A stretch of DNA of 33,938 nt from Candidatus Azambacteria bacterium RIFCSPHIGHO2_02_FULL_52_12. GTDB taxonomy: Bacteria > Patescibacteriota > Minisyncoccia > GWC2-36-17 > WO2-46-25. Shown here piece by piece: positions 10,275-33,938 of the stretch. Made by a program: the position numbers and the translations under genes. The stretch lies in assembly GCA_001775835.1 (NCBI GenBank), contig MEYP01000005.1:13457-47394 (forward strand), in the 5' to 3' direction. The notes under the pieces were generated by a model. The model saw nothing but the letters and a program-made list of their open reading frames with translations, did not search any database and was not told where the DNA came from. Numbering within the stretch: the stretch's first letter is position 1; every line of letters starts with the position of its first letter.

Positions 10275-10275
10275 C

Positions 10276-11344: not shown

Positions 11345-11351
11345 ATATCTA

Positions 11352-11403: not shown

Positions 11404-11450
11404 ATTATGCATGTACGCATAGCGCTTTTTCTTCGTACTGTTAAAACTTT

Positions 11451-11528
11451 AAAACCACCCGGAACTTCTTCGGGAAATCCTGCGCATCATGCGCATGGGC
11501 CGAATCCCTCTGCGGCATTACCCCGCTC
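11451..11528 (-). repeat. 78-bp imperfect palindromic repeat, copy 2
   Basis: 8 differences from copy 1, all transitions. Confidence 0.95.
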
Positions 11529-11572
11529 TGTGCGCAGAATATCGCATGTACCTTGCTCAAGGAAATTCTTAA

Positions 11573-11612
11573 GGATAACCAAAAAGCGCCGAGCGGCGCT
11601 TTTTGGTTATCC
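11573..11612. terminator. Bidirectional intrinsic terminator
   Basis: Perfect 18-bp stem GGATAACCAAAAAGCGCC-GAGC-GGCGCTTTTTGGTTATCC. Confidence 0.85.
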
Positions 11613-11786
11613 AGTTTTTGCCTTTAGACGGGATTGTTCAAATACCCTTCTTTGATCTTCATTCGCCTTTCGTATGACCTCTTGAAATAGGCGCTTTTTT
11701 TCTCGAGAACTTGCATCATTAAAAAAAGCTGAAAAATCGCTCTTTTGCAAGCTTTTGCCAAATAATTTAGTTAAAATCCGTTTCAT
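11607..11786 (-). CDS. 59-aa zeta-toxin-associated small protein (putative antitoxin); absent from the ORF track
   Basis: MKRILTKLFGKSLQKSDFSAFFNDASSREKKRLFQEVIRKANEDQRRVFEQSRLKAKTG; ATGA overlap with the zeta gene stop. Confidence 0.75.
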   Translation of the reverse strand: MKRILTKLFGKSLQKSDFSAFFNDASSREKKRLFQEVIRKANEDQRRVFEQSRLKAKTG

Positions 11787-12484
11787 TTAATGAGGTTTAT
11801 TAATTCTTCTTCAGTATATATCTTGTCTAAATAATGGTCAATGGTGTCAATATTCAATTTAAGAAGCTCTAACCCGGTATTAAAATTCTTTATGATGAGG
11901 TTTAATTCTACTTTGTCCTTGAATTGCCGTTTCGCTTCATTCACATTCTCTCTTGAAGCAAGAAAACCCTTGATAAACATCTCTTTTGAAACTCTTCGAT
12001 GCTCAATTTCCTCTCTTTTCTTAGTAAAATCCCACGCAACAATAGGATCTTGGAAAAGATAGAAGATTTCAATCTTCCTGCCATGATCAATTGACCTTTG
12101 AATATTGAGAAGCGCTCCTTTGTAAGCGAAGGTTCCGTCTAAAACAACATTAAGTTGATTTTTAATGACATAATCGTAAAGTTTATTGACGCCAATTGAG
12201 CAGGCTGACTGAAATAAATGGGCATTGCTACCATTGTAATTAGGAAACATATTTCTAATCTCATCCGCATCAATTCGAACCGGCTTAGTAGAAAACCTCT
12301 CAATCAAACGCTTGGAAACTTCTGTTTTACCGGCACCCGGTGAGCCAGCCATAAAAAGAGAAACGGGACTGCTATCCGGTTTATAAAATGCCGGGTCGGC
12401 AAACTTTTTTATAAGCTTTTCTTTTTGCTCTTTTATAAATCTTTCCGATTCGGCGATAATTTTTTGTTCCTCATTATTTTCCAT
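11783..12484 (-). CDS. Zeta toxin family P-loop kinase
   Basis: FMAGSPGAGKT Walker A; RIDADEIR, VVLDGT and RRV motifs. Confidence 0.88.
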   Translation of the reverse strand: MENNEEQKIIAESERFIKEQKEKLIKKFADPAFYKPDSSPVSLFMAGSPGAGKTEVSKRLIERFSTKPVRIDADEIRNMFPNYNGSNAHLFQSACSIGVNKLYDYVIKNQLNVVLDGTFAYKGALLNIQRSIDHGRKIEIFYLFQDPIVAWDFTKKREEIEHRRVSKEMFIKGFLASRENVNEAKRQFKDKVELNLIIKNFNTGLELLKLNIDTIDHYLDKIYTEEELINLIK

Positions 12485-12508
12485 AAATCTATTGTACCCT
12501 ATAACACC

Positions 12509-12586
12509 AAAACCACCCAGAACTTCTTCAGGAAATCCTGCGCATCATGCGCATGAACTGAATCCCTCTACGGCGTTGTCCCATTC
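12509..12586 (-). repeat. 78-bp imperfect palindromic repeat, copy 3
   Basis: 9 differences from copy 1, all transitions. Confidence 0.95.
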
Positions 12587-12688
12587 CGCTGAAAAATTGA
12601 CCTGGTCTTTATACCTTCTGGAATACAAACAAATGCTCGTGCATTATCAATAAAAAATTTGATTCTTTTGATTGTTTTAATTTCATAT

Positions 12689-12919
12689 TTAGTTAACGAT
12701 GCCCGTCTTGCTTATCTGTTTCTTATTTTTAAAAAACTTTAAACTACACAGTGAACAATAGTTTTCAGCTACTTTATCAAAAAACGACATGACCACTGAC
12801 TCCTTTATTTCTTCTTGTGTTTTAAATCCAATATTATACTTTATAAAAATTTCACGCGGAGTACATCGAGCCATATCCAATAAAATTTTGCCTATCTCTT
12901 CTTTCTTTTTTGTTTTCAT
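12689..12919 (-). CDS. Small hypothetical protein
   Basis: 76-aa ORF co-oriented with its neighbours in AT-rich DNA. Confidence 0.45.
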   Translation of the reverse strand: MKTKKKEEIGKILLDMARCTPREIFIKYNIGFKTQEEIKESVVMSFFDKVAENYCSLCSLKFFKNKKQISKTGIVN

Positions 12920-12977
12920 AAAATCAGATGTAAACTAATAATACTCTGATCTTTGATCGAAATGGAAATAAAGTCAA

Positions 12978-13748
12978 CTACCGCACTTGATAAGTTCCTC
13001 GCTCCACAAAATCAAGATATCCTTTATCGCGCAAAACTTGTAGCTGTTGGCGGATTTTATCCTTGATATGCTTATTATCAGGGTGTAATTGGCTCAAATC
13101 TTTTTCAAACGCATATATATCATCGAGTCGAAATTCTTTTTTACCGATTTTGTCCACATACCGCATCACATCAAGCAGCCAGCCTTTCGCTGAAGCTTCT
13201 TTTTCTTCCCGCAGGAACAGCGTCTTCTTCCATTCCGCAAGCACTTTTTCCTTCGATTCAACTTGCTTATTTTTAACAAAAAATATTTTCCCCGTTTGCG
13301 GAATGCTTTGTAAGAGAATATTGCAACCAACCCAGCCCGCACGGCGAGCTGTCAGCGCAAGCTTTTTTCTCTTCTCGATTATTTCCGGCACAAAAAAGTG
13401 TTTTGGAATAACAAGAAAGTTTACAACTTCAAGGCTTGCTAAATTATAATTCAAAAGAAAAAAGTTTGGATTACTGCTACTAGTCAGCCGCTCAAGCATT
13501 GTGCGGTACGCTCCGTCAACAATCTTGTTCCCCATGCTATCTCGCTTACTCTTCAATTCATAATCTTCATTGCAATTTGGACAATAAAAATCACCGACGG
13601 GCTTGTTACTTTTGTATTTCCCTAAATCAACATATCCGCAATTCGGACAAAATATGGAATTGCCGACCCATGCTTCCGTCAAAACACGCGCTCTTTGCGC
13701 TAGATTTTTGTAATTCTCGGCAAGTTTTGTGTTAAAACCTAATTCCAT
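12978..13748 (-). CDS. DpnI-family (Dam-replacing) m6A-dependent restriction endonuclease
   Basis: CPNCG...DFYCPNC.EDYELKSK, IVDGAY, NPNFFLL, RRAGWVGC; winged-helix HIKDKIRQQLQVLRDKG. Confidence 0.93.
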   Translation of the reverse strand: MELGFNTKLAENYKNLAQRARVLTEAWVGNSIFCPNCGYVDLGKYKSNKPVGDFYCPNCNEDYELKSKRDSMGNKIVDGAYRTMLERLTSSSNPNFFLLNYNLASLEVVNFLVIPKHFFVPEIIEKRKKLALTARRAGWVGCNILLQSIPQTGKIFFVKNKQVESKEKVLAEWKKTLFLREEKEASAKGWLLDVMRYVDKIGKKEFRLDDIYAFEKDLSQLHPDNKHIKDKIRQQLQVLRDKGYLDFVERGTYQVR

Positions 13749-13917
13749 AGTTATTGTCCCTTGTCTCAATTTCCATCATTGAATAAATTTTCTAGATATA
13801 TAGCTATTCTGTGACTCATGGATTGTTCGTATGCGTGAAGACTCAGTAATTCAATATTATTATCAAGAAAAATTTAAACTACACTTTCGACTTTGCTTTA
13901 TAAATTTTCCATATTTT

Positions 13918-16740
13918 TTAACCTAACTTTTCCTTATTAAGAATTAATTTTATTTCTAGTTTGCTACACAAACTTTGTTTTTCAGAAATTTTCATATCAA
14001 ATTTGTACAGATATTCAATTACAAGTATGCGAAGGATTCTTCTTGCTAGGTAATTTTTTTCAAAAATTCTATCTAGATTTATAATTTCTTCAGAATGTAG
14101 TCCGCCTGGAAAATTAAGTCTAGCAGCCAAGTTAACAAGCTGGACACCTGGTCGTAAATCCTTTTCCGAAATCTTTTCCATGGTAGGAAATATATTTTTT
14201 GATGCGACGCTATTACTTATCCTTTTTAAAAAAGCATAAACAATCATTTCAGTGAAATTTTGAATGATTTTATCAGCAATTCGTTCTTTCTCAGCCTCAT
14301 CCACAGCCTTCTTCTTCTCAACCACCTTAAGGACTTCAATTTTAAGAGACTCAGCAAACTTTCCAAAATCATCAAGAAGTGCACCTAGAGCCCTAAAACC
14401 CAAGGAATTAATCTCAATTAGTATCTCTGCTTTCCTCTTACCCTCTAATGAGCCATAGTAATTTTGAGTAATTTGACCCATTATCTCTAACAATTTAAAA
14501 GACAAATTGATCTCTCCAAATAGGCCTAAATCTTTTTTGCTTTTGTGTTCTTTTTCTTTCTTATTGTCTTTCTCGTTAACTTCTTCGATTTCATCTCTCT
14601 TGGCAAGCTCTTTTTTCCGATATTCACTCGGTTTCTCGTCCTTGATAGTGAAACTAACTTCTTGGCGAATTAATTTATTAATTTCAAAGGATGCAGAATT
14701 TGTAAGCGCAAAAGGTTCAACTTCTTTGAAGAGATCCGAAGATTCTTTGATTATTTTCTCTAGAATTGATTTGCTTTTTGAATGATGTATTAAAAAGATT
14801 AGGATATTTGCATATTCTGTGCGGTATAGATGTTTAGTAATCTCTTCAATGTTTTGTTTAATATCATCATTTTCAATGTTATCGGCAAAATATTTTGCAA
14901 CAAAAAAATAATAAGAATAGTTATGACTGAATGAATATGAGTCATCATAAAATCTCAATATCTGGGCTCTATTTAGAAGCGGGTGGAGTATATCGAATTC
15001 TTTATCAATATCCATCTCTTGACTATAATTTTTATATATAACTTTAAGCTCGTTCAATGGTATAGATCTTTGACCTTTTCTAAAAAAAGAATATGCAAGG
15101 TATGATAAGTATGTAAGATAAAAATCAAGATCTTCTGGCTTTGCATTAACACTACCTAAAGACTGGATAATAAGATACGTATAAAGTTCTGCATATGAAC
15201 TACCTTGGAGCTTGTTTTTACTCGTAGTCTCAATTAACTGCAGAATTGTAAGCAGATAAAGCGGGTAGGTGGGAATAAAGTTTGTACCTACTGCAACTCT
15301 AATCTTTTCAGATATTTCAATTTTTTTATTATGTATATCACTGTCAGGAGTAATATCACCATCACCGGCTGTTAACCATTTTTCAATAAGCTTATCTCGC
15401 AAGACATAACCAAGTTCTTTTATTTTCAGTGGTATAAAACCAGTTAGTTGTTTTCGAGTTTCACTGTCGGCCATTACTTCAATCTCCATAGATTTGTTAG
15501 CAAAGATAATGACATTTTCAAAATGCTTATTTAGAAATTCATGAAAATCTGCCCTCGCTTGTGTCCTTTTAATACTAAGTGATTCGTAATTATCTATAAT
15601 TAGAGAGATTTTTGAGTTATCCTTCGAAAGGATGTCCTCGAAACAGCTAAGATATTGATCTCCATCAGAATATTGTTTTTTAAAAGAAGTTTTTAAAAGG
15701 TTTGTAAATTTATTTAAATCTGCTTTTTTTATATCTTCAGCATCTAAATAAAGCGAAATGAACCCTTTGCTGTTTATATCTTTTTGAAGCATTTGTGCCA
15801 AAGTCGTCTTGCCCGACAGGTCTTCTCCGAAAACCAGACATTTCTTGAGACCCTTTTCCAGTTCTACAAGTTTTTTAGAGTCAATTTTCTCTTGTTTCTC
15901 GTCCTCAATGGGTTCAAGACTTGGATAAATAAAGATGTCTTCCAAAGAAAGCACATCTTTACCAGGATGCGTGATATGCATCCCTATTTCATTTATTTTC
16001 CTAACATATACATCAGAAAGATTCATGCGCTCTGGACAAACTTGGTTGGCAAATATACCTATTTTGGGAAACTCACACACTTTTTTGCAATTAATATCTT
16101 TATGAAAGATCTCCGTCTGTATAAAAAAATCTAAAAGAGTGGCTTCTTTTACTAGCTCAGAAGTGAGGGCATTGGTAAAAATGACCCCATCTGGCATGCC
16201 TCCATTTAAGGTCTCGACAGCCCAGAAATTGCCCCGCTGTGAAATCACCAATGATACATTTCCAATTTTATTTTTATCTTTAATAGTCTCCTCGACAGCT
16301 CTTTCAGACAAGATACTTGGTTGAATAACTTTAGCATTAACATAAGCTTCGATAAGTTTGTCTGGAGTATAAAAAAAGAAATCGTGATTATTATCTTTTT
16401 TTAATTTATCGACTAAGCCCTCAGCATCTTTTGTTAGCGGTGCAGTAACCACAAGCCACGCCTCAGCATATTTATTGATCTCCTTTACTCCAAAAAGTTT
16501 TGTAATAACTTCAGCAGAAATATTTTTAGATTCATTATAGGCTTTGCACTCAACGTAGATTTCTTTACCATTAGTTTTATGTACACACAACAAATCCAGC
16601 TCCATGCCAGTAAGTCGTAGTTGTTTTTTAACCGCGTAATTTTGCGTTTCAAGAAGTTCTCCAGTTAACTTCTCGAGTATTTTACCCTTTTCTGTGGATG
16701 ATTCCGATTTTAAAATGGCGACTTTAATCGACTGAGACAT
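13918..16740 (-). CDS. Mrr-like nuclease fused to STAND/NACHT-like NTPase and a helical C-terminus
   Basis: N-terminal KGKILE...ELDL...YVECKAY (PD-ExK); Walker A GEDLSGKTT; Walker B LIIDNYE; PLYL; YSFSHNY. Start MSQSIK. Confidence 0.85.
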   Translation of the reverse strand: MSQSIKVAILKSESSTEKGKILEKLTGELLETQNYAVKKQLRLTGMELDLLCVHKTNGKEIYVECKAYNESKNISAEVITKLFGVKEINKYAEAWLVVTAPLTKDAEGLVDKLKKDNNHDFFFYTPDKLIEAYVNAKVIQPSILSERAVEETIKDKNKIGNVSLVISQRGNFWAVETLNGGMPDGVIFTNALTSELVKEATLLDFFIQTEIFHKDINCKKVCEFPKIGIFANQVCPERMNLSDVYVRKINEIGMHITHPGKDVLSLEDIFIYPSLEPIEDEKQEKIDSKKLVELEKGLKKCLVFGEDLSGKTTLAQMLQKDINSKGFISLYLDAEDIKKADLNKFTNLLKTSFKKQYSDGDQYLSCFEDILSKDNSKISLIIDNYESLSIKRTQARADFHEFLNKHFENVIIFANKSMEIEVMADSETRKQLTGFIPLKIKELGYVLRDKLIEKWLTAGDGDITPDSDIHNKKIEISEKIRVAVGTNFIPTYPLYLLTILQLIETTSKNKLQGSSYAELYTYLIIQSLGSVNAKPEDLDFYLTYLSYLAYSFFRKGQRSIPLNELKVIYKNYSQEMDIDKEFDILHPLLNRAQILRFYDDSYSFSHNYSYYFFVAKYFADNIENDDIKQNIEEITKHLYRTEYANILIFLIHHSKSKSILEKIIKESSDLFKEVEPFALTNSASFEINKLIRQEVSFTIKDEKPSEYRKKELAKRDEIEEVNEKDNKKEKEHKSKKDLGLFGEINLSFKLLEIMGQITQNYYGSLEGKRKAEILIEINSLGFRALGALLDDFGKFAESLKIEVLKVVEKKKAVDEAEKERIADKIIQNFTEMIVYAFLKRISNSVASKNIFPTMEKISEKDLRPGVQLVNLAARLNFPGGLHSEEIINLDRIFEKNYLARRILRILVIEYLYKFDMKISEKQSLCSKLEIKLILNKEKLG

Positions 16741-16827
16741 AATGTTTTGGGCGTACTTCCCGAGTGCGAGAATTACACATAAATTAGCTGGCCTTATGGG
16801 ACGATGTTGGAACTGCAATAAAGATGT

Positions 16828-17361
16828 TTAGTAATGCAAGCAAAATAACTTCAGTAGAAAAATCCAAGGCATAACTGACAATAAAAGTGCAGAATAAATA
16901 ACAATAAAAATCCAAGGAACCCAAATCTCGATATGGGTAAAAGGCCAGTATATACTTTTATCCTTGCCTCTTCCTAAGATTTCCCATTCCGTATCGTAAA
17001 GAGCTAAAGGTAAACGTGCCTCTATTATGTGAACAACATTATATTTTCCACCATTAAGGCCTTTATAAGACAATACAATTCGATACCATAAATAACACAT
17101 TGTTATTCCCGCTATAGAAGAAAGGATTAGTAGCCCCGTGATTTCATTTTGTGAAGTTTTTGTAGCAACAAATCCCAACAAAGCTACAAGCCCAGTATTT
17201 AGGCCGAGAAAAAACTCATTGGCCTTTTGTCGACGATCACTTATTTTTTCGGCAGAGTTTATATAGATTTTATACTGCTCTAAAAGATGCTCTATATATT
17301 TGTCTCCGTATTTACTACTTTCAGAAACAAAAAGTATTTTTTCAAGATCATCCTTTTTCAT
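16828..17361 (-). CDS. Small multi-TM protein (RipA/SLATT-like pore-forming effector candidate)
   Basis: LLEQYK...SDRRQKANEFF, two TMs, SYKGLN..KY..IE..LP, EW, third TM. Starts 1 nt after the TIR stop. Confidence 0.7.
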   Translation of the reverse strand: MKKDDLEKILFVSESSKYGDKYIEHLLEQYKIYINSAEKISDRRQKANEFFLGLNTGLVALLGFVATKTSQNEITGLLILSSIAGITMCYLWYRIVLSYKGLNGGKYNVVHIIEARLPLALYDTEWEILGRGKDKSIYWPFTHIEIWVPWIFIVIYSALLLSVMPWIFLLKLFCLHY

Positions 17362-17362
17362 G

Positions 17363-17770
17363 TTAAGCGAGTTCGCGAATACCAGATACAATAGAGCCCG
17401 TGTTCCACTTCACGATTTTATCTGCATTGTCTTTCACTACTTGAGACGTTCTTTCGCTCGCGAATGGTTCTATTGCGAGAATGGGTTTAGGAATTGTAAA
17501 CCCTTTCGCAATATTAATTTCTTTATTGATCCAAATGCTATAGGTTGAATAAACTCCGGCGAGCATGATAATCACATCACAAAATCGCATTTGATTTTGT
17601 ATTGCCGCCGTTAATGCAATGGAATTGGGAGCGTTATGAATAGGATCGTCCTTTGGAACTGAATAGTCCTTAAAGTTAAATCGTGGGTCATTTTTAAGCA
17701 TTTTAACAAGCCTTTCATAATTATCCTCATAAGCCCATGAATGGCTGATGAATATACTGTATTGTTTCAT
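17363..17770 (-). CDS. Stand-alone TIR domain protein (ThsB/MTH538-like)
   Basis: IFISHSW, DYS, CDVIIMLAG, WINKEI (catalytic Glu position), KPILAI. Confidence 0.9.
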   Translation of the reverse strand: MKQYSIFISHSWAYEDNYERLVKMLKNDPRFNFKDYSVPKDDPIHNAPNSIALTAAIQNQMRFCDVIIMLAGVYSTYSIWINKEINIAKGFTIPKPILAIEPFASERTSQVVKDNADKIVKWNTGSIVSGIRELA

Positions 17771-17887
17771 ATATCCTTGGTTAATAGTAAATAATACCTT
17801 CTACCTTGACTGTGTTCATAACTTTTATAAAAATTTTGTCTTATTAAGCTTATAATGTTTCTAGAAAATGTGGGGATAAGTCACTTA

Positions 17888-17946
17888 TGGACTTTCTACT
17901 TTTTTCGTATATACTGTAATTATATGCCTTTCGAATAATAAGTCAA
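17888..17946. promoter_or_regulatory. Overlapping opposed sigma70-like promoters
   Basis: + strand: TGGACT(17888)-16-TATACT(17910). - strand: TTGACT(17946)-16-TATAAT(17924). Confidence 0.55.
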
Positions 17947-17955
17947 CAATAAAAA

Positions 17956-19299
17956 ATGTTGGGGAAAAGAAAAAAACAAATATTAGATTTCGTCAATAGC
18001 TATGTTGGCAAGAATGGTTTTGCCCCATCTCTTGAGGAAATAAAAAAGAAAACCGGCCTTTCTTCTGTGTCGACAGTCCACCACCATCTTAAAGACCTTG
18101 AGAAACAAGGTTATATTAAACGACATGAGGGCAAGCCAAGAAGTATCGAAGCGAGAGATTTAACGGTTACAATTCCCTTGCGAGGATACATTGCTGCAGG
18201 CCAACCCATTGAAGCCATTGAGGTATATGAAACTATTGATGTTCCAAAAAATCTTTTGTCGGGTTCTGGTGAGCATTATGCTCTAAGAGTCTCAGGAGAC
18301 AGCATGATCGACGAAGGTATTTTTGATGGCGATACAGTTGTTGTTAGAAAACAAAATAGTGTTGAAAATGGAGAGACAGCAGTAGCTTTAATAAATGACA
18401 ATGAAGTTACTCTTAAAAAGATTTACAAGGAAAAAAACCGTATCAGACTGCAACCAGCGAATCCAAAATTAAGACCTTTCTATTTTAAAGAGGTGATTAT
18501 TCAAGGCAAGGTTGTAAGTACATTCAGAAATTTCGAAGAACAGGAGAAAAAAGATACTTTTAAATTTAATCAATTCCTCTGCGGAGACGTTTTAGAAATG
18601 ATCAAAAAAACTCCAGATAATTCAATACATTTTGCAGTAACTTCTCCACCATATAATGTTGGTAAGGACTACGACAACCATAACGATAAAATGAATCACC
18701 AAGAATATCTTGATTGGTTATATAAAGTCTGGATTGAAACAAAGAGAGTGCTTGTAGATGGTGGTCGTTTTGCAATCAACATAGCCCCTACTGGTATACG
18801 AGATTTTGTACCAATTCATCACGACTATATCGAACAAATGAAAAAACTTGGTATGAAATTCCGTACAGAAATTTTATGGTATAAACAAACAATGTTAAAA
18901 CGAACTGCTTGGGGTAGTTTTAAGAGTCCGTCTAATCCACACATTGTGCCATCATGGGAATATGTTTTGATTTTTACTAAAGGTGATAATCGCTTAGATG
19001 GTGATCAAAGAATGGCAGATATTACAAAAGAGGAATTTATGAAATTTTCTGATGGATTTTGGAAGATCCAGCCAGAAACAAAAAGGAAAGGACACCCCGC
19101 ACCATTTCCAGAGGATTTAATTTACAGGTTGATGAAATTTTACTCTTACAAGGGTAATAATGTGTTGGATATGTTTGGCGGAACCGGGACAGTTGCGGCG
19201 GTTGCTGCGAAAACAGGAAGAAATTTTATTCACATAGATATTTCACCGCAATACTGTAATGTGGCGAAAGATAGAGTAAATAAAATTCTAGGAAAGTAA
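17956..19299 (+). CDS. lexA: LexA repressor fused to beta-class N4-C/N6-A DNA methyltransferase
   Basis: LexA HTH (PSLEEI...SSVSTVHHHL..LE..GYI), IAAG cleavage site, GDSM Ser, TLKK Lys; then TSPPY, HPAPFP and DMFGGTGT in one frame. Confidence 0.9.
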   Translation: MLGKRKKQILDFVNSYVGKNGFAPSLEEIKKKTGLSSVSTVHHHLKDLEKQGYIKRHEGKPRSIEARDLTVTIPLRGYIAAGQPIEAIEVYETIDVPKNLLSGSGEHYALRVSGDSMIDEGIFDGDTVVVRKQNSVENGETAVALINDNEVTLKKIYKEKNRIRLQPANPKLRPFYFKEVIIQGKVVSTFRNFEEQEKKDTFKFNQFLCGDVLEMIKKTPDNSIHFAVTSPPYNVGKDYDNHNDKMNHQEYLDWLYKVWIETKRVLVDGGRFAINIAPTGIRDFVPIHHDYIEQMKKLGMKFRTEILWYKQTMLKRTAWGSFKSPSNPHIVPSWEYVLIFTKGDNRLDGDQRMADITKEEFMKFSDGFWKIQPETKRKGHPAPFPEDLIYRLMKFYSYKGNNVLDMFGGTGTVAAVAAKTGRNFIHIDISPQYCNVAKDRVNKILGK

Positions 19300-20097
19300 A
19301 TCGTCTTTAGTAAGTAGTTCATCTGAAAAATTCGCAACAACCTCTTTTCGCCACATTTTTAGATCTTCAAAAAGCTTATTAGCACCGTCTTGTTTGGTGA
19401 AATCTAATTTACAAATCTGCGAACATTCGGTAGTTAGTGGATGCGTCGTATAAACACGATCGAGGTATGCTTCACATTTTTTTCTCAACCCACTTGCGTC
19501 ATTATCACCTTTCATAAACTTCTTATCGAGGTCTTGAGTCATTAAACAATACTTAATGTTGTTATCTCGCAATGCAAGAGCCCAAAACAGCACAGCGTCA
19601 TTTCTGCTATGATCGCTTGTCTTGCAATTGAGTAAAGCAAACACCTTTAGTGTGCCTTTGCTGTCTTTAGTTAAGACAACAATGTCTGAGTCAGGCCAAA
19701 CACCAGTTGTTTTTTGTGTGCAACGACGGTTTGCTTTTAATGTTAAAAATTGAACAATATCCTTTGCTTTAGGATGTCGTTTTAATTGGTCCCCCTTAAT
19801 AGCCATGATTCCTTCCCGGTTCAAGGAGTCATTTATCAGATTACGAACAAATTCCTCAAAATTATTTCCACTTGCCACCACCCAACTTTGCCGAGCTTGG
19901 TTAAGATCACGTCCATTTTCAAGGCATAATTTAATATAAATTTCCTGAGTCATTTCCATAACCTTACCCTCTGGAACTTCTACTTCTTGAACAATAGCCA
20001 AAATTTGCCCAACATCTTTGATGGGTTTTATTCCAAAACCTTTTAGTTGCTCCTTGGCTTTTTGGTATATTTCCTCAAAGTTAATTTTTGTAGCCAT
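19288..20097 (-). CDS. Type II restriction endonuclease, BsaWI-like PD-(D/E)xK
   Basis: QSW...GNNFE, PDSDIVV, LLNCKTS; convergent with the MTase and overlapping it by 12 nt. Confidence 0.75.
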   Translation of the reverse strand: MATKINFEEIYQKAKEQLKGFGIKPIKDVGQILAIVQEVEVPEGKVMEMTQEIYIKLCLENGRDLNQARQSWVVASGNNFEEFVRNLINDSLNREGIMAIKGDQLKRHPKAKDIVQFLTLKANRRCTQKTTGVWPDSDIVVLTKDSKGTLKVFALLNCKTSDHSRNDAVLFWALALRDNNIKYCLMTQDLDKKFMKGDNDASGLRKKCEAYLDRVYTTHPLTTECSQICKLDFTKQDGANKLFEDLKMWRKEVVANFSDELLTKDDLLS

Positions 20098-20227
20098 AAT
20101 TTTAGAAGAAATGGGATCGAGCTTTCTTCCGAGGACTCTATTGTTGATCATTGGAAAAATCAACCCATATTGTAATTATGCAGTAAGTAGCGTAAATTAT
20201 CAATTAATATGTGTATATCTAAACTAC

Positions 20228-21076
20228 ATGAAAGACATTGTCGATAGACTCAAAATCCGTTACGAGGCCGCTCTACAAAGCAGCTCTGATTCGCTGTTTT
20301 ATCAAAACGTACATGCGTATATTGATTTTATAGTCAAAACCCCTGTCCTCTCTGCGATTATGGATAAAGGCGAGGAAGAATATCATAACAAGCACTCTGA
20401 GATAGTCCATGTGCGAGCACTTACCGACCAAAAGGCTGATGAGAAAGAACAGCTTATTAATAGGCTTGAGCGTTTCTCTCTGTTCGCAGCACATTACTGC
20501 ACCCTACTCATAAAAATATATAACCCTATTGAAGATTATAAAAACTCTACTGAACCAGATGCTGAGCAAGATCCCGTTGCGCTTCTCATGCTTAAAGGGA
20601 TTAAGAATATCAATACACAACGATGGGGTCAGAAAACACTTGAAATATACAATGGACACTATGATGGCAAACGAAAATCCTATGAAGATGATTTACGACA
20701 ATTTCACGTTGATTTTCTGACCGAAATAGAAAAGGTAGAGACAATAAAAGAAAAACCAAAAATTAGTTTTGATAAGGAAAACAGCATATTGCATATTGAC
20801 GATAAAGATGTCCACATAAAACTAAAGAACGATAAACCAAATGATCACTATGTGCTTGAATATATTTTTGAGAATGAGGAAGGTTTAAAGGAAAAATCAT
20901 TTTATTCTGATATTATCAAAATAAAGTTTGAGCGTGAAAAAGTAGATAATATGTCGTTATACCGCTCTTGTAAGGCTATTAGCAGAAAAGTAAGCGAGCA
21001 GGCAGGGCTAAGTAATTTTCTTGTCATTAAATCTGGGAAAACTGGCTATACACATATAAATCCTGACTATCTATAA
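20228..21076 (+). CDS. Hypothetical protein with probable C-terminal winged HTH
   Basis: Start MKDIV; C-terminal ISFDKENSIL...SLYRSCKAISRKV...GY resembles an OmpR-type wHTH. Confidence 0.6.
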   Translation: MKDIVDRLKIRYEAALQSSSDSLFYQNVHAYIDFIVKTPVLSAIMDKGEEEYHNKHSEIVHVRALTDQKADEKEQLINRLERFSLFAAHYCTLLIKIYNPIEDYKNSTEPDAEQDPVALLMLKGIKNINTQRWGQKTLEIYNGHYDGKRKSYEDDLRQFHVDFLTEIEKVETIKEKPKISFDKENSILHIDDKDVHIKLKNDKPNDHYVLEYIFENEEGLKEKSFYSDIIKIKFEREKVDNMSLYRSCKAISRKVSEQAGLSNFLVIKSGKTGYTHINPDYL

Positions 21077-21113
21077 ATCTTACCCGTAAGATGCTGTAAC
21101 GGCGCTGTGAGAG

Positions 21114-21139
21114 AATCACCTTATTAAATTAAGGTGATT
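21114..21139. repeat. 10-bp inverted repeat covering the RBS region of the small ORF
   Basis: AATCACCTTA-TTAAAT-TAAGGTGATT. Confidence 0.7.
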
Positions 21140-21144
21140 TTTTT

Positions 21145-21309
21145 ATGTCTTTTCAATTCAGCGAAAACCTCATAGCAGAGACGATTAAATGCTTCAAAGA
21201 AGAGGATGGTTTGGACGTATCCCCTGCGCAAGCAAATGAGTATCTGAACTCTTTTGCTGATTTGTTTTTGGCGTTTGCGGGCGGGCGTTCACGCCCGCCC
21301 CTGACTTGA
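21145..21309 (+). CDS. 54-aa small protein; absent from the ORF track
   Basis: MSFQFSENLIAETIKCFKEEDGLDVSPAQANEYLNSFADLFLAFAGGRSRPPLT, preceded by AAGGTGA. Confidence 0.6.
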   Translation: MSFQFSENLIAETIKCFKEEDGLDVSPAQANEYLNSFADLFLAFAGGRSRPPLT

Positions 21310-21311
21310 TA
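21279..21311 (+). other. Putative rolling-circle double-strand origin
   Basis: GC hairpin GGGCGGGCG-TTCA-CGCCCGCCC followed by CTTGATA (21305-21311), the pC194/phiX174-type nick core, just upstream of Rep. Confidence 0.6.
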
Positions 21312-21342
21312 TCCCCTCATAATTGTTAAACAGAATATCCTC

Positions 21343-22077
21343 ATGTATTTCATTTTTAGAATGTATGGAGAAACCGTTGAAATCACAGAAATCGAAAAAG
21401 AGCCGAAAAAAGTACGCGTATATCGTTCCAGAAAAAGGAATCCTATACACGGGCTTAGGCGACCCGATAATATTAGAAGGGCGCGAAAAACATGTTTGTG
21501 GTGCGTGTCTGCTGCTGTTGCAGAACTTGGGTGCCCACTCTTGGTTACTCTCACCTTTGCGGGAGATGCGTCAGACGCCTCCTATGCGAATGATTCCCTT
21601 CGCGTCTTCCAAGTGCGGTTGCGAGCTCAGTTCCCTGATGCGCAATCCCTCTTTGTTCCAGAGCTTTCCCCCCGAGGACGAATCCATTTTCATGGCTTAC
21701 TTTTTAACGTGCCGTTGTCTCTCGGAGATACGCGCAATGGTAAGCGGGTCGTTTCGTACGGCGATGAACGTAAATTACGAACCCTTGCTGAGTTATGGGG
21801 AGAGGGTTATGTTGATGCGAGAAAGACTGATGGTTCTCCAAGGCTGGCAAGTTATCTCAGTAAGTACATAACGAAGGGCGCTGGACAGGTTATGTTCAAT
21901 GCGATGCGCCTTTTACGGATATCGCGTGGCTTCCCACGAGAGGATGTCGTTCGTGGCGACCTTGCAAAAGAACTCGCGCGCCGTTATGCTATGCGTAAAC
22001 CCGCAAGAGTGTGGAAGGGCGATAATATATTTCTTGGACACATTAAGAAAACAATGTATTATCAGAATGTAAAATGA
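21343..22077 (+). CDS. HUH rolling-circle replication initiator
   Basis: Motif 1 LVTLTF; motif 2 ELSPRGRIHFHGL; motif 3 YLSKYITK with two Tyr. Confidence 0.88.
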   Translation: MYFIFRMYGETVEITEIEKEPKKVRVYRSRKRNPIHGLRRPDNIRRARKTCLWCVSAAVAELGCPLLVTLTFAGDASDASYANDSLRVFQVRLRAQFPDAQSLFVPELSPRGRIHFHGLLFNVPLSLGDTRNGKRVVSYGDERKLRTLAELWGEGYVDARKTDGSPRLASYLSKYITKGAGQVMFNAMRLLRISRGFPREDVVRGDLAKELARRYAMRKPARVWKGDNIFLGHIKKTMYYQNVK

Positions 22078-23582
22078 ACTACATCATCTACACTAGAAAA
22101 TCTACCGATACTGAAGATAGGCAGGTTCTGTCTTTGGATTCTCAAGAAAGAGAGCTTTTAGAGATAGCGGATAAGCACAATCTCAAAGTGGTAAAGACGT
22201 TCCGAGAAAGCATGTCTGCTAAATCTGCGGGACGTCCAATTTTTAACGAAATGATGGCGTTGGTTGAGTCAGGTAAGGCCCGAGGAATCCTTTGTTGGAA
22301 GTTGGATCGTCTTGCTCGTAACTTTGTTGATGGTGGTAAAGTTATTGATTCTTTGCAGAGGGGTGCTATACAAGAAATCAGGACGTACGAATCAACCCAC
22401 TTACCTTCCGACAACGTTCTCCTTCTTGCTGTTCAGCTTGGTATGGCTAATCAGTATATCCGGGATTTAAGTGTAAATGTAAAGCGTGGCAACCGAGAGA
22501 AGCTCTCTCGTGGTGAATGGCCTAATCATGCCCCCTTTGGATACTTGAATGATAAAGCCACCAAAACAGTTATTGTTGATCCTGTGCGTTCCCCATATGT
22601 TGTACGAGCTTTTGATCTGTATCTTATCGGCAGTTATAGCTTTAAAAATATTTCTGACATTCTGTATCAGGAAGGTTTGCGGACGAAATCTGGCAAGAAA
22701 GTGTTGAGGGGTCACATCCAAAAAATCATTACCTCTGTTTTTTACACGGGCATCATGAAACGGGAAGGAAAATATTACAACGGCAACCATCAGCCCCTTA
22801 TTTCTAAAGATACATTTGATAAAGCACAGGGGCTTTCTGGTAATCGATCACGACCTCGTCCACAAAAACTTTTCTTTCCACTCCGAGGTTTCCTCACGTG
22901 TGAAAGTTGTGGGTGTATGCTCACTGCCTCTTTGAAAAAAGGTCATCATTACTACTACTGCACCAACGGCAAGCAAAAATGCGATGAACACAAAAGCTAT
23001 CTTCGGGAAAATACCTTATACCAGTCTATCGCTGAAATCCTTGGCTCGTTAGATTTTACCGAACGAAAGATTGAGCTTATGTATCAGGCCGCAAAAGCAA
23101 GGTCTGGTGGTGATACTGAATACGTCCAGAAGGCATTAGAAACGCTTCAGACGCAATTAGAATCGCTTAAGACTAAAGAGATGAAGCTCTTGGACGCTTT
23201 CTTGGCTGAGCAGATACCCAAGGAGCTTTACGATCAGAAAACGCTTGAATTGCAGAATGAACGGATTTCAACTATGAGACAGCTTCGAGAAACAAAATCA
23301 AAACAAACAGTTTCCACTTTGGAACCGGTCAAAGAAGTGTTTTTACGCGCTAGCAGAGCCAAAAAAGAATTCTTGGAGGGTGATGATACAAAAAAGCATA
23401 CCATCCTACAAAGTTTACTTTGGAACCTTTCTCTTAAAGACAAAATTATGGCTTCAGTAAGCCTTAAAAGTCCTTATGACATTATGTCTAAAGCACCTAA
23501 AAACGGGGGTTTCTCTACAAAGCTGCGGGACCTGGATTCGAACCAAGATAACGACCTTCAGAGGGTCGCGTCCTACCGTTAG
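22074..23582 (+). CDS. Large serine recombinase (resolvase, recombinase, Zn ribbon, coiled coil)
   Basis: YTRKST catalytic Ser, ESMSAK..GRP.F, KLDRLARN, APFGY, CESCG...YYYC...C. Confidence 0.95.
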   Translation: MNYIIYTRKSTDTEDRQVLSLDSQERELLEIADKHNLKVVKTFRESMSAKSAGRPIFNEMMALVESGKARGILCWKLDRLARNFVDGGKVIDSLQRGAIQEIRTYESTHLPSDNVLLLAVQLGMANQYIRDLSVNVKRGNREKLSRGEWPNHAPFGYLNDKATKTVIVDPVRSPYVVRAFDLYLIGSYSFKNISDILYQEGLRTKSGKKVLRGHIQKIITSVFYTGIMKREGKYYNGNHQPLISKDTFDKAQGLSGNRSRPRPQKLFFPLRGFLTCESCGCMLTASLKKGHHYYYCTNGKQKCDEHKSYLRENTLYQSIAEILGSLDFTERKIELMYQAAKARSGGDTEYVQKALETLQTQLESLKTKEMKLLDAFLAEQIPKELYDQKTLELQNERISTMRQLRETKSKQTVSTLEPVKEVFLRASRAKKEFLEGDDTKKHTILQSLLWNLSLKDKIMASVSLKSPYDIMSKAPKNGGFSTKLRDLDSNQDNDLQRVASYR

Positions 23583-23593
23583 ACGATCCCGCA
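23523..23593 (-). tRNA. tRNA-Gln(CTG)
   Basis: TGCGGGA/TCCCGCA acceptor stem; CGACC-CTCTGAA-GGTCG anticodon arm; GGTTCGAATCC. Confidence 0.95.
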
Positions 23594-30976: not shown

Positions 30977-31615
30977 CTACGCCTTGTTTGTATGAGAGCT
31001 CAGGATAAAAACGGACGCGCAAACAAAAACGGTGAAGATAAAAATATACGACACGAGCAACGGCCAGAAGTCGTTTACCAGGACTACCAGCGACCCGCCG
31101 AGGCCGGCAAACAGAAACCCAAGACCGAGAAAAAATAGTGGCACTTTATTTTTCTTTATATTGGCCAGATTCGAGAGGAACGTGACCCCCAGAGCAAGCG
31201 TAAAAAGAATAATACCGATACTAAATACTATTGCATCAATAATGGCATAATGCCAATAAATAAGAAATCCTTGTATGACGGGTTGGGGCAAAGCATTCAT
31301 GCCGACAAATAGTTTTATAAAGGAAAAAACTGCGACCACCGCACTGATGAAATTCGGCGAAACGCTTTTCACCTGCTGAAATCGTATGAACGCGCGCAAG
31401 ACAAATGCAAATGAAAACAGCATGATAAAATTGCCGATTTCGGCGGCGATACCTGAAGAAAACGCATATAACGTAAAACTCATGACTAAGAAAACAAAAA
31501 ACAGGTAAAACTCATGATAATTTTGACCGCCTGTTTTTTTCCACGCCTTATAAAAAAAGGCGCTTGCCCACAAAGATATTATGGCGGAAAACAAATAGAC
31601 AAAAATAGAAAACAT
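30977..31615 (-). CDS. Multi-TM (~7) membrane protein, paralog 3
   Basis: MFSIFVYLF start; LIYWHY and LGLGF..GG shared with its neighbours. Confidence 0.8.
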   Translation of the reverse strand: MFSIFVYLFSAIISLWASAFFYKAWKKTGGQNYHEFYLFFVFLVMSFTLYAFSSGIAAEIGNFIMLFSFAFVLRAFIRFQQVKSVSPNFISAVVAVFSFIKLFVGMNALPQPVIQGFLIYWHYAIIDAIVFSIGIILFTLALGVTFLSNLANIKKNKVPLFFLGLGFLFAGLGGSLVVLVNDFWPLLVSYIFIFTVFVCASVFILSSHTNKA

Positions 31616-31626
31616 ATATGCTTACT

Positions 31627-32280
31627 TTATATGGGCCTGGCATTCAGTAAAAACAGGGTGACAAGCACGAAGGTAATAAAAAGAAGGGTGAATCCGAGCA
31701 CAAGAGCCCAGAATACATTAAAAGCGACAAGAGGCAATCCGCTTGCGCCGCCGATCAGAAATGCCAATCCCAGATACACAACCTGTATTTTGCGTTCTTT
31801 AATATTCTTCAGATTGTAAAAGAACGTCATGCCCATGGCGGCGGTATAACATGTTAACAATCCTAGATATACTATACTGCTTGGCAATGCATAATGCCAA
31901 TAGATAAGCCCGTCCGTAAAAGCAGGGATGGGCGGATAACGCAGAGAAACAATAAGACTTACGCATGCCGCAAGAATTCCCAAAATCGTGACTGAATTTA
32001 CTGATATCGCGACAACCTTCCAAAAACGGACCAATGCCCGCAAAACAAAAGAAAAAGAGAGAAGAACAAAAAAATTGATCAGCTCACCACCCAAAGCAAA
32101 AAGCGTTGGATTTTTAAAGAATACCAATGAAGGAGCCATGAAACCCAATCCTAAAAAAAAGAAGAAGGTTCCGAATGCCGTATACAGATCGTAGTTATTT
32201 TTTTTCCCAATCCTAAAGAAATAACTACTCGCCCACAAAGAAACGGCAGCAGAAAACAAATAGACAAAAATAGAGAACAT
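31627..32280 (-). CDS. Multi-TM (~7) membrane protein, paralog 2
   Basis: MFSIFVYLF start; LIYWHY motif. Confidence 0.8.
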   Translation of the reverse strand: MFSIFVYLFSAAVSLWASSYFFRIGKKNNYDLYTAFGTFFFFLGLGFMAPSLVFFKNPTLFALGGELINFFVLLSFSFVLRALVRFWKVVAISVNSVTILGILAACVSLIVSLRYPPIPAFTDGLIYWHYALPSSIVYLGLLTCYTAAMGMTFFYNLKNIKERKIQVVYLGLAFLIGGASGLPLVAFNVFWALVLGFTLLFITFVLVTLFLLNARPI

Positions 32281-32282
32281 AG

Positions 32283-32945
32283 CTATACCTGTTTTTTATT
32301 TGCTGAAATCAGAATGAAGATAAGCCAGAACACAGCGCACGCGAGAAGTATGAGATAGCCGACCATGAGGGGAAGAAAAACATTGAAACTGTGCACAAAC
32401 ACTCCGCCGACGCCTCCGGCAATGAACCCCAACCCTAACAATAAAAGCGTCTTTTTGTTTTGCATAACATTGCCCATGTTAGCGAGAAGCGTATATGCCA
32501 TGGAGATGGTAAAAACAGCGACAAACGCACCGAAGAAAATGGCATGGAAAAGCGGATAGTGCCAATAAATGAGATGGTCTTGCATGACGGGAACGGCAGG
32601 TATGATGATTCCGATACTAAACTTTATAACTGCGGATACGGCAAAGATGATAAGTATGGTGGCGGGAGCTATGAATGAAATCCGCTGAAAACGGAGAAAA
32701 GCGCGAAATACAAATGCAAAAGAAAGAAGAATAAGAAAATTACCGACTTCTATAACAATGCCCCGTGCGGATTGATTTAATAAAAGAGCGAGCGGGTAAA
32801 GAAACATGCCTATTCCCAAAAAAAGAAAGAAAAAGAAAAACTCGCGATAATTCGCATAAGGATGCTCTTTAAAGGCGCGCCGAAAATGTCCGCTTGCCCA
32901 CAGAGAAACGCCTGTAAAAAATAAGTATATAGAGACGGAAAACAT
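32283..32945 (-). CDS. Multi-TM (~7) membrane protein, paralog 1
   Basis: MFSVSIYLF start; LIYWHY motif; TGCTATAAT upstream at 32957-32965. Confidence 0.8.
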   Translation of the reverse strand: MFSVSIYLFFTGVSLWASGHFRRAFKEHPYANYREFFFFFLFLGIGMFLYPLALLLNQSARGIVIEVGNFLILLSFAFVFRAFLRFQRISFIAPATILIIFAVSAVIKFSIGIIIPAVPVMQDHLIYWHYPLFHAIFFGAFVAVFTISMAYTLLANMGNVMQNKKTLLLLGLGFIAGGVGGVFVHSFNVFLPLMVGYLILLACAVFWLIFILISANKKQV

Positions 32946-32970
32946 ATATTTATTTCATTATAGCACATAC

Positions 32971-33938
32971 TCACAACTTGTCCGAGCCGTTCACCTGGAT
33001 GGGGAAAACGCGGGAAAGGAACAGTTTCCTGACCGGTAGGAAGAACGCCTGCCAGAACGTGAAAAATTCAGGGATTTTGAGCGCCCAGGAGCTTGCGCAA
33101 TACGCGAGAAGTCCGGCAAGGAACGCCGCGATGCCTTGCGCGAAAATGCCCGTGAACGTCTGCATATCCACCAGCGCCGCGACCGCGTGCAGCGTGGCGT
33201 ACACCGCAACCGCCATCACGAAAACGGCGATATTGGTCTTAAACAGCGAGCGGATGATGGTGTCGGAATCATATGACTCCATCCTCCAGGAAAACGCCAG
33301 ATAGAGCCAGAGAAAGTTGATGATGCTCGATACGGAAAACGCCAGCGGCAAAGCCAGCACGGAGATGTCGGCGATATCGGATACTTTCAGAAGCGTACCG
33401 ACATAATGCGCGAACGCGCCGTGCGCGCGCATGAGGTTCAGGAAATAAAAGCTGAAGAGAATATTGATGAACACGGAAGCGACGTTGATGAACACCGGCG
33501 TTTTAGTGTTGTGGATGGCGTAGAACGCCCGCGTGAAAAGCGGGATGAGCGACTGCGCGAAAATGGAAACGGCAAAAGCCCCCAGCGCCGCGGCGGTGAG
33601 GCGCGTGTCCTCCCACGAAAACTGCCCGTATCCCAAAATGACGCGGACGATCTGCGCGCGCTCCAGGATGAGGAACAACGAGATGGGAATGACCAAAAAC
33701 AGAATCTGGTTGACGGTGAGGTAGAGCTCGCGCAAGAACCCGCCGGTATCTTTGTTCGCGTACGCCGCGGAGAGCATCGGAAACACGGCGCTGACGAACG
33801 ACAGCGCGACGATGCCGATGGGGACGAACTGGAGGTCGTTGGCGAAGTTGAACACGGAGATGCTTCCCGAAGACATGGTCGAGGCGATGGAGGTGATGAT
33901 GATGAAATTCAGCTGGTAGGCGGCAAGCCCGACGGTGC
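32971..33938 (-). CDS. murJ: Lipid II flippase MurJ (5' partial)
   Basis: Frame open to the window edge; FANDLQFVPIG, VFPMLS, YGQFSWEDT, RAFYAIHNTKTP. Confidence 0.92.
   Translation of the reverse strand, partial: TVGLAAYQLNFIIITSIASTMSSGSISVFNFANDLQFVPIGIVALSFVSAVFPMLSAAYANKDTGGFLRELYLTVNQILFLVIPISLFLILERAQIVRVILGYGQFSWEDTRLTAAALGAFAVSIFAQSLIPLFTRAFYAIHNTKTPVFINVASVFINILFSFYFLNLMRAHGAFAHYVGTLLKVSDIADISVLALPLAFSVSSIINFLWLYLAFSWRMESYDSDTIIRSLFKTNIAVFVMAVAVYATLHAVAALVDMQTFTGIFAQGIAAFLAGLLAYCASSWALKIPEFFTFWQAFFLPVRKLFLSRVFPIQVNGSDKL

Follow-up and report, generated by a model that had tools for sequence, protein, structure and literature searches.

What kind of element carries a rolling-circle replication protein, an origin-like motif and a large serine recombinase (LSR) beside a tRNA gene in an ultra-small member of the Patescibacteria, where are its ends, and does it move? 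We analysed a window of 33,938 nt from Candidatus Azambacteria bacterium RIFCSPHIGHO2_02_FULL_52_12 (GCA_001775835.1, MEYP01000005.1, positions 13,457-47,394 of the forward strand). The hairpin, the CTTGATA motif, the two-Tyr HUH Rep, the ATGA overlap, the LSR and the tRNA-Gln were all found where the original prediction had located them. We consider that positions 16787-23525 (6,735 bp) probably represent a small mobile element with site-specific integration, present here as a single integrated copy in a Patescibacteria host; after excision it would be nicked by its Rep and replicate as a rolling circle. The features of this copy are as follows.

16786-16790, plus strand: attL core AGCTG, the sole identity common to attR; the same GCTG precedes the left arm in loci L067 and L079
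16791-16814, plus strand: left attachment arm (P'), holding TGGGACGATGTTGGAACT; the 18-mer at 16797-16814 matches at 17/18 positions
16828-17391, minus strand: 8xMP (octameric membrane protein family), cargo (PF24838, 2.9e-42)
17363-17770, minus strand: ThsB-like TIR protein, cargo (PF08937, 1.3e-13; PADLOC ThsB, 3.1e-8)
17956-19299, plus strand: LexA DNA-binding domain and S24 peptidase fused to an N6/N4 DNA methyltransferase, cargo (Pfam; PADLOC MTase_II, 1.6e-71)
19288-20163, minus strand: BsaWI-like type II restriction endonuclease, cargo (PF18643, 7.9e-12)
20228-21076, plus strand: conserved accessory gene, 282 aa from the ATG at 20228 (tblastn)
21106-21147, plus strand: AT-rich terminator-like hairpin and T run, after the 282-aa gene
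21145-21309, plus strand: small gene of 54 aa, conserved (at many loci tblastn places a homologue upstream of Rep)
21279-21300, plus strand: GC-rich hairpin directly 5' of the nick-like motif (folding)
21301-21329, plus strand: conserved origin-like block with the predicted nick G21308/A21309 (column conservation; comparison with the phiX174 origin)
21343-22077, plus strand: two-Tyr HUH rolling-circle Rep, 244 aa (Pfam, PHROG, motifs, fold)
22074-23582, plus strand: LSR, 502 aa as read in the integrated state (Pfam; phrog_95 integrase, 5.4e-80)
23521-23525, plus strand: attR core AGCTG, at the extreme 3' end of the tRNA gene
23522-23593, minus strand: host tRNA-Gln(CTG), the integration target (tRNA search, Rfam)

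The Rep matches PF23343 (REP_ORF2-G2P) at 1.9e-11 with 44.5 bits (cut-off 27.8) and PHROG 3419, 'rolling circle DNA replication initiation', at 4.1e-11. Its motifs follow the order of HUH initiators, namely LVTLTF (motif I, uTLT), HFHGLLF (motif II, HUH) and YLSKYITK (motif III, YxxKY), and the residues H115, H117, Y171, K174 and Y175 are invariant in 32/32 aligned homologues. The structural model (pLDDT 85) has the HUH nuclease fold. VIA-align ranks the Rep of SIRV1 (ORF119) first among the fold matches, with Z 9.7 and an rmsd of 3.1 over 110 aligned residues, before the nuclease domains of Helitron (Z 6.5) and AAV5 Rep (Z 6.4); Foldseek alone returned weak rows only, and a sequence search of PDB gave no match. 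From the conserved site and the analogy with phiX174 we infer that the protein nicks DNA site-specifically, becomes covalently linked through a 5'-phosphotyrosine and initiates replication.

Upstream of this gene, the GC-rich hairpin has a 9-bp stem and a 4-nt loop, with a folding energy of -13.8 kcal/mol (DNA parameters) and a z value of -4.4 against shuffles; a consensus scan found it not terminator-like. The motif CTTGATA follows at 21305-21311, within CTGACTTGATAT. CTTG/ATA is the nick core of pC194-family double-strand origins, and the original prediction had named phiX174 beside that family. The phiX174 record marks the A that follows CAACTTG as the origin, and phage and window have the 9-mer ACTTGATAT in common. 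A lone 7-mer would be chance; it is the conservation across loci that lifts the motif above chance. Upstream sequence is available from 71 sources, and in 68 of them GACTTGAT lies at most 200 nt upstream of Rep, as part of a block of 28 conserved nt on both sides of which conservation falls sharply. The hairpin behaves differently, as it is present at -10 kcal/mol or below in 49 of 57 distinct upstream segments (the other 8 have no strong hairpin) and its sequences are unrelated between loci. At loci L062 and L063 the hairpin is absent and the core is altered (ACATAGATA), with the end of the small gene still there. These two loci and the 8 segments count against our explanation. A homology break exactly at the nick was considered for these two loci and rejected in favour of a degenerate origin.

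The LSR, whose start codon overlaps the stop codon of Rep (ATGA, 22074-22077), has Resolvase, Recombinase and Zn_ribbon_recom domains, all over the Pfam cut-offs. The catalytic Ser10 is kept in 34/34, and the model has long helices at 330-448 after the zinc ribbon. The tRNA-Gln gene overlaps the final 61 nt of the LSR reading frame, and the last 20 or so codons of the recombinase are the antisense of the tRNA. In this family, attP straddles the 3' terminus of the recombinase gene, and the recombinase joins it to the 3' terminus of a tRNA gene, which in this copy is tRNA-Gln(CTG). Because the LSR gene runs across attP, integration swaps the C-terminal tail of the protein. In an excised circle TGGGACGATGTTGGAACT would read as a W-D-D-V-G-T tail of the LSR (translation of 16788-16880), and at least 8 of 120 database LSRs carry such an attP-type tail. 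In a quick tree of the LSRs, which is indicative only, the tRNA targets are scattered, with 20 changes compared with a shuffled mean of 20.2.

The left end needs a different kind of evidence. attL and attR share only AGCTG; the crossover is therefore predicted at these 5 nt, and the left boundary rests on a match of the attachment arm, not on a repeat. No direct repeat of the tRNA of 10 nt or more was found in the window. When compared with the window, the shared cores of L020, L024 and L007 are longer (12-19 nt), and direct repeats of this length bound elements of 4.2-6.4 kb in these loci. The 18-mer of the left arm forms the left end of the integrated copies L020, L067 and L079 and follows the recombinase directly in the circular contig L021. 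As it also occurs at 16797-16814 in the window (17/18 match, 0.02 expected by chance), the element is placed at 16787-23525, and the extent of 21114-23593 proposed at first was too small. In 5 relatives ftsX has a tRNA-Gln(CTG) gene downstream of it, and the tRNA was the sole match in the Rfam scan. Three other candidates were discarded: the whole low-GC island at 10.1-23.5 kb as a single element is ruled out by the left arm at 16797, the resemblance of the 5' part of the tRNA to 9928-9944 (15/17) is no better than background, and a repeat at 4889 in L025 was replaced by a proper left arm at 5883.

With these boundaries, the cargo of the element is only the TIR/8xMP pair, whose genes overlap, and the type II restriction-modification pair. 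The original prediction had spoken of defence genes as neighbouring cargo, which holds for these two pairs and fails for the Mrr-STAND, DpnI-like, zeta and Panacea genes, since these sit left of attL and thus outside the element. An older low-GC defence island (10.1-16.8 kb) adjoins the element. In relatives the cargo includes ThsB-TIR, an AAA_15/21 ATPase and a HIT protein. Two further genes are conserved. The 282-aa gene has homologues at the same position in 12 related loci (tblastn); it matched no Pfam, PHROG or PADLOC family, and its Atlas matches are all 'hypothetical'. The 54-aa gene crosses the GC hairpin with its 3' end and takes its stop codon, TGA, from within CTTGATA. Both are candidates for a recombination directionality factor. 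No such factor and no complementary-strand origin were identified, which counts against our explanation.

The element belongs to a widespread family. We collected 276 Rep homologues, of which the best 120 have 62-73% identity, on contigs of up to 941 kb. The pairing of Rep and recombinase across genomes was borne out: of the 63 related loci for which downstream DNA is available, 59 have an LSR after Rep. A minus-strand tRNA gene (Gln, Leu, Lys, Ser, Tyr, Trp, Gly or Asn) adjoins the LSR end in 38 of 48 loci. The genes are not a syntenic part of the host lineage: Rep was found in 0 of 10 other genomes of the host family, and of 400 further genomes sampled from the phylum 1 has it and 399 do not. 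As predicted, no match to a capsid, Zot, type IV secretion system (T4SS) or canonical relaxase gene was obtained among the ORFs at 16.8-23.6 kb with Pfam, PHROGs and PADLOC, nor was there an FtsK/TraSA-like domain in any of these ORFs. A search of the openly accessible literature found no description of this family.

Relatives exist as free circles. The contig L021 has a terminal overlap of 55 nt, which implies a circle of 5,696 bp. The contig L009 is an attP junction, in which an L007-like element has its right end joined to its left end via its 19-nt core. A real attP is visible in both contigs; together with the attP-type LSR tails they provide the excised form that had been anticipated. 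An empty site, too, is seen among the relatives. For this copy, the expected circular junction and coverage rise did not appear: no circular junction (23525 would be joined to 16791), empty site or copy-number rise was seen in the Logan data of 4 public runs (X1, X8, X9 and X10), which consist of contigs and so drop rare variants. In run X1 the depths are flat, with 44-53 for the flanks, 55-57 for the neighbouring island and the left part of the element, and 51.7 for the contig with Rep and LSR. On sequence grounds, the original picture of a minimal, excising rolling-circle element in a CPR-like host is supported, with its boundaries corrected.

We propose that the element is mostly kept integrated. 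Once it is excised, its two-Tyr HUH Rep would nick the plus strand in CTGACTTG/ATAT, between G21308 and A21309, and would then prime rolling-circle replication with the helicase and polymerase of the host. For the GC hairpin 5' of the nick, structure and not sequence may be what counts; its role could be to help in exposing the nick site, to end a replication round or to start the complementary strand. The anti-phage cargo would be exchangeable and occupy a slot between attL and the conserved backbone.

We also weighed three other explanations. The locus might be an integrative mobilizable element in which Rep is mainly or also a relaxase. An oriT usually has an inverted repeat immediately 5' of its nick site, a layout that the hairpin and nick of the window fit. 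Precedents exist in Firmicutes: according to PMC5704250, relaxases akin to rolling-circle initiators serve many of the integrative mobilizable elements there, in some of them alongside serine recombinases, and Tn916 and ICEBs1 use one protein for both relaxase and rolling-circle initiation. The host further encodes a T4CP-like ORF that passes the PF02534 cut-off with 32.7 bits, and another ORF, of 827 aa, with a weaker match to the same family (22.5 bits). On the other hand, the element has no coupling-protein gene, and nothing ties the T4SS of the host to DNA transfer. The hairpin sequence varies freely and Rep is highly conserved, which argues against the sequence-specific hairpin recognition that is typical of relaxases. 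We think this explanation unlikely, and it would in any case be compatible with replication.

The kinship of Rep raises a second explanation, in which the element is a satellite of a filamentous (inovirus-like) phage, its phage-type Rep and origin making single-stranded circles that a helper phage packages. PF23343 is the domain family of plectrovirus ORF2 and inovirus G2P. At locus L030, from a distant Rep clade (45-48% identity), Rep directly follows a Zot/pI-like ATPase in an inovirus-like gene order, and the core is kept as GACTTGATA; the ATPase matches phrog_20922 at 6.5e-12, Zot-like phrog_197 at 4.9e-9 and M13 protein I phrog_1675 at 4.3e-5. Nevertheless, we judge this explanation improbable. 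The assembly ATPase is present only in that distant clade, the inovirus-like relatives have no GC hairpin, genes for coat or assembly proteins are missing from the element, no Zot-like gene occurs in the 96% complete assembly of the host, and no relatives of the family were found among the IMG/VR viral contigs. It is very unlikely that the locus is a fixed, no longer mobile remnant in a defence island at a tRNA hotspot: the flat depth, the lack of junction contigs for this copy and the adjoining older island at 10.1-16.8 kb are set against intact backbone ORFs with their catalytic residues in place, a left arm matching at 17/18, an intact origin block and the absence of the element from all 10 other genomes of the family.

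Within the preferred explanation, a replicating element that excises and integrates, the recombinase gene allows a bolder idea, which we regard as possible and somewhat doubtful. As the gene extends over its own attachment site, only the excised circle would yield the full-length LSR with the conserved V-W-x-x-V-G-T tail (511 aa, against 502 aa in the integrated state), and the integrated isoform would take its tail from codons antisense to the target tRNA. In this way the element would sense its own state. The isoforms may differ in stability or in the direction of recombination (integration versus excision), and the codons of the A-P-K-N and V-G-T motifs would double as the two attP arms. 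AlphaFold modelled an attP-type recombinase with a pLDDT of 43-54 over its final 20 residues, too low for any reading of the tail structure. An integrase gene spanning its own attachment site is unusual for a serine integrase, and a search of the openly accessible literature found no serine integrase gene spanning attP.

Patescibacteria make up a large share of bacterial diversity, their plasmids are almost unstudied and there are few genetic tools for them. The family offers three usable parts, namely a compact native replicon whose origin is defined (by prediction), a serine integrase whose attP and attB sites in tRNA genes are readable, and a slot for cargo, which make it a candidate source of shuttle or integration vectors for these bacteria. 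It illustrates one route by which defence genes may pass between Patescibacteria and ties their small plasmids to inovirus-like replicons. Its Rep is also a candidate for the 'missing relaxase' of Patescibacteria type IV secretion systems.

Integrative and conjugative elements of the pSAM2 type have a tyrosine integrase, an FtsK-like transfer protein and a rolling-circle Rep, integrate in tRNA genes and excise to a circle. Our element is likewise small, integrated at a tRNA gene, excised to a circle in its family and equipped with a rolling-circle Rep, which has a weak, sub-threshold match to RepSA (E 0.006). It differs in using an LSR, in having no FtsK-like transfer gene, in its size of 4-7 kb and in its Patescibacteria host. 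Elements of the pSAM2 type belong to actinomycetes (PMC2440964). The pCRESS groups (Kazlauskas et al. 2019, PMC6668415) are also Rep-encoding, site-specifically integrated in chromosomes, bounded by att repeats and devoid of virus structural genes; their Reps are nuclease-helicase fusions related to CRESS-DNA viruses, whereas the Rep here, with 244 aa and two Tyr, is a nuclease only and of the G2P/ORF2 kind. In the passages on these groups, Patescibacteria and serine recombinases have 0 occurrences.

The integrative mobilizable elements of Firmicutes (PMC5704250) share with our element the combination of an HUH initiator and a serine recombinase, very short junction repeats, and restriction-modification or toxin-antitoxin passengers. 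Their Reps are of the Rep_trans, Rep_2 and PHA00330 kinds, the members with serine recombinases mostly insert within protein genes, and a helper conjugative element is known, whereas none is known for the element here.

As for phages and viruses, the likeness to the origin of phiX174 gpA lies in the shared 9-mer and in the two-Tyr YxxKY motif of both proteins; the Rep here belongs to another Pfam family than gpA, a GC hairpin precedes the site, and there are no capsid genes. In fuselloviruses of the SSV1 type the integrase gene contains attP and is split by integration, and this integrase is a tyrosine integrase split near its middle. The element described here likewise has its attachment site within the integrase gene, but its serine integrase loses only the last 9-30 codons, which are replaced by codons antisense to the tRNA.

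It is likely that the element is an integrative rolling-circle plasmid, and its main features are listed here in window coordinates.

Main features of the element
16786-16790: attL core, AGCTG
21279-21300: GC hairpin, 9-bp stem and 4-nt loop, dG -13.8 kcal/mol (DNA parameters), z -4.4 against shuffles
21343-22077: Rep, 244 aa; PF23343 REP_ORF2-G2P (1.9e-11), PHROG 3419 'rolling circle DNA replication initiation' (4.1e-11)
22074-23582: large serine recombinase (LSR), integrated-state ORF, 502 aa; Resolvase, Recombinase and Zn_ribbon_recom domains
23521-23525: attR core, AGCTG
23522-23593: tRNA-Gln(CTG), strand opposite the LSR, covering the final 61 nt of the LSR ORF

The original prediction of a two-Tyr HUH Rep agrees with both profile matches, with the motifs LVTLTF, HFHGLLF and YLSKYITK, and with the catalytic residues, since H115, H117, Y171, K174 and Y175 are invariant in all 32 aligned sequences. 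HUH nucleases are the best structural matches of its AlphaFold model (pLDDT 85), namely SIRV1 ORF119 Rep (Z 9.7), Helitron (Z 6.5) and AAV5 Rep (Z 6.4). There are 276 homologues; the best 120, all unnamed, are 62-73% identical and lie on contigs of 1 kb to 941 kb which, where labelled at all, are labelled Patescibacteria. Of 400 other genomes sampled from the phylum, 1 contains Rep; it was found in none of the 10 other genomes of the host family, and not in IMG/VR. The predicted overlap of the Rep stop with the LSR start is present (22074-22077), and the search for further Rep-recombinase pairs that had been proposed shows that the pair recurs. Among the loci gathered for comparison (26 from species genomes and 45 from metagenomes), the LSR follows Rep in 59 of the 63 with downstream DNA, and the other four form a separate Rep clade with 45-48% identity.

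The hairpin and CTTGATA are likewise where they had been predicted, upstream of Rep, and the same arrangement recurs before homologous Reps. In the window, CTGACTTGATAT begins 2 bases after the hairpin and contains CTTGATA at 21305-21311. Of the 71 sources that have sequence upstream of Rep (the window counted), 68 carry GACTTGAT no more than 200 nt before the gene; the misses are L062, L063 and L090. The columns flanking this anchor give a 28-nt block, CTGACTTGATATCCCCTCAyAGTTGTAA, and conservation collapses on either side of it. Directly 5' of the block, a GC-rich hairpin with a dG of -10 or lower (median -17.6) folds in 49 of 57 distinct segments. Most stems stop 0-3 nt before GACTTGAT, and their sequences are unrelated from locus to locus; what is conserved is therefore the structure rather than the sequence. 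In the phiX174 record, the origin stands at the A after CAACTTG, and the 9-mer ACTTGATAT is common to phiX174 and the element. By this likeness, the nick would fall between G21308 and A21309. L062 and L063 have a degenerate origin upstream of Rep, in which the GC hairpin is gone and the core reads ACATAGATA, with the 20 nt downstream intact.

Related elements are bounded by direct repeats identical to the tRNA 3' end (L007, 19 nt and 4,411 bp; L024, 16 nt and 4,188 bp; L020, 12 nt and 6,366 bp). The two ends of contig L021 (5,751 bp) overlap by 55 nt, which implies a 5,696-bp circle, and in it TGGGACGATGTTGGAACC stands directly after the LSR. This 18-mer also marks the left end of L020, L067 and L079, which are integrated. 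In another contig, L009, the right and left ends of an L007-like element are joined via its 19-nt core. The window has a single copy of the 18-mer (16797-16814, one mismatch, against a chance expectation of 0.02), preceded by GCTGGCCTTA compared with GCTGGCCGTC in L067 and L079. This left arm and its preceding core place the ends of the element at the AGCTG copies of 16786-16790 and 23521-23525, giving 6,735 bp in place of the 21114-23593 first assigned. The crossover appears to lie at the very 3' end of tRNA-Gln, so that the tRNA stays intact.

Of the 48 loci that include the end of the LSR, 38 have a minus-strand tRNA next to it or overlapping it (Gln 18, Leu 6, Lys 4, Ser 3, Tyr 3, Trp 2, Gly 1, Asn 1; some elements are counted twice, from two assemblies). 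These targets are scattered over the LSR tree, a quick tree that is indicative only. In five related genomes tRNA-Gln(CTG) is downstream of ftsX, and so it is the host's own locus. Left arms also occur in tandem, four in L011 (1720, 3459, 4774 and 5198) and two in L025 (4061 and 5883), all upstream of one Rep-recombinase module. This suggests repeated integration at one site, as would arise if successive elements had accumulated at one tRNA and the older ones had lost their backbone. Junctions resembling attP, in which the left arm comes after the recombinase, lie within the 46-kb contig L008 (10200-10420) and the 13.8-kb contig L022 (6560-6800), and may represent tandem copies or plasmids of larger size.

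Translated in the LSR frame, the left arm reads W-D-D-V-G-T, and its variation across loci is mostly at third codon positions (GAC/GAT, GAT/GAA/GAG, GTT/ATT/ATC, ACC/ACT). Judged by this reading frame, the LSR gene spans attP, and the excised-state LSR of the window would have 511 aa compared with 502 aa when integrated. Among the best 120 LSR homologues, at least 8 have this kind of tail (attP state), about 64 end in the antisense of the tRNA T-arm (integrated state), and 31 stop within a few codons. The tail is poorly modelled (pLDDT 43-54).

The predicted excised form is represented in relatives (the L021 circle and the L009 junction), but no circle was seen for the window copy. The contigs of four public runs, which cannot show rare forms, contain neither a circle joint nor an empty-site joint for it, and the coverage rise anticipated in the original prediction is also not seen in them. 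In one run, X1, attL is spanned by a single contig and the depth stays level (flanks 44-53, Rep-LSR contig 51.7). The window copy is at least mostly integrated. Elsewhere, at 9752-10335, the metagenome contigs add up to 2-3 times the depth of the neighbouring sequence, variant contigs are numerous around 9995, and a 97-aa ORF lies on the minus strand (9839-10132); this suggests sequence common to several community members.

The element carries genes for an 8xMP membrane protein, a ThsB-like TIR protein, a LexA-S24-methyltransferase fusion and a BsaWI-like endonuclease. Two further genes are conserved, one for a 282-aa protein without assigned function, the other for a 54-aa protein, with its stop codon in the nick motif. 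In the same slot, relatives have other small cargo (ThsB-TIR with DUF559, an AAA_15/21 ATPase, a HIT protein). The fusion joins a LexA DNA-binding domain and S24 peptidase to a DNA methyltransferase (17956-19299); a 39% identical homologue is at 2812-4233 of L047, about 1.7 kb from tRNA-Gln of the related genome G002, in which Rep was not found. The neighbouring defence genes had been taken as cargo, which holds for the TIR/8xMP and methyltransferase/endonuclease genes inside the element, but not for the remaining low-GC sequence (10.1-16.8 kb), which lies beyond attL. At 10100-16790 the GC content is 0.32-0.38 vs about 0.52, and the genes are a Panacea-HTH antitoxin-like gene with a 131-aa ORF, a zeta toxin, a DpnI-like methyl-directed endonuclease and a 939-aa Mrr-STAND protein (PADLOC PDC-S60); neither an integrase nor a left-arm remnant was found in this stretch. 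Copies of an 83-nt direct repeat (84% identical) precede the Panacea-HTH gene (11442-11524) and the zeta toxin gene (12500-12582), and there is a perfect 19-nt inverted repeat at 11573-11612. Two further GC dips, of about 0.41, are at 4500-6500 and 31000-33000.

The comparison demonstrates, for the family, that the LSR integrates at the 3' ends of tRNAs and that circles exist. In the plasmid reading, Rep would nick between CTTG and ATA, and rolling-circle replication would follow. Rep might also serve as a relaxase for the Patescibacteria type IV system, in which a relaxase is mostly missing (PMC12102498); the host genome has a T4CP-like ORF and ComEC, and we consider this role improbable. A satellite of inovirus-like phages is also an unlikely reading: in the related locus L030, a distant-clade Rep adjoins a Zot/pI-like ATPase and the nick core is the same, but no such ATPase gene was found in the host. 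The Rep clade with 45-48% identity (L030, 2843-8729; also L091 and L092) is without the recombinase. In L030, which may be a filamentous phage of Patescibacteria, Rep comes after the ATPase in an inovirus-like gene order and the GACTTGATA core is kept. That the element is a fixed remnant is very improbable.

A search of the literature outside subscription journals found no paper on this Rep-LSR family. The element is of a kind already known. PMC6668415 describes integrated HUH-Rep plasmids, PMC2440964 elements of the pSAM2 type, and PMC5704250 mobilizable elements that use serine recombinases and relaxases resembling initiators. When compared with an AICE, the element lacks both the tyrosine integrase and the transfer gene, and therefore it is not an AICE.
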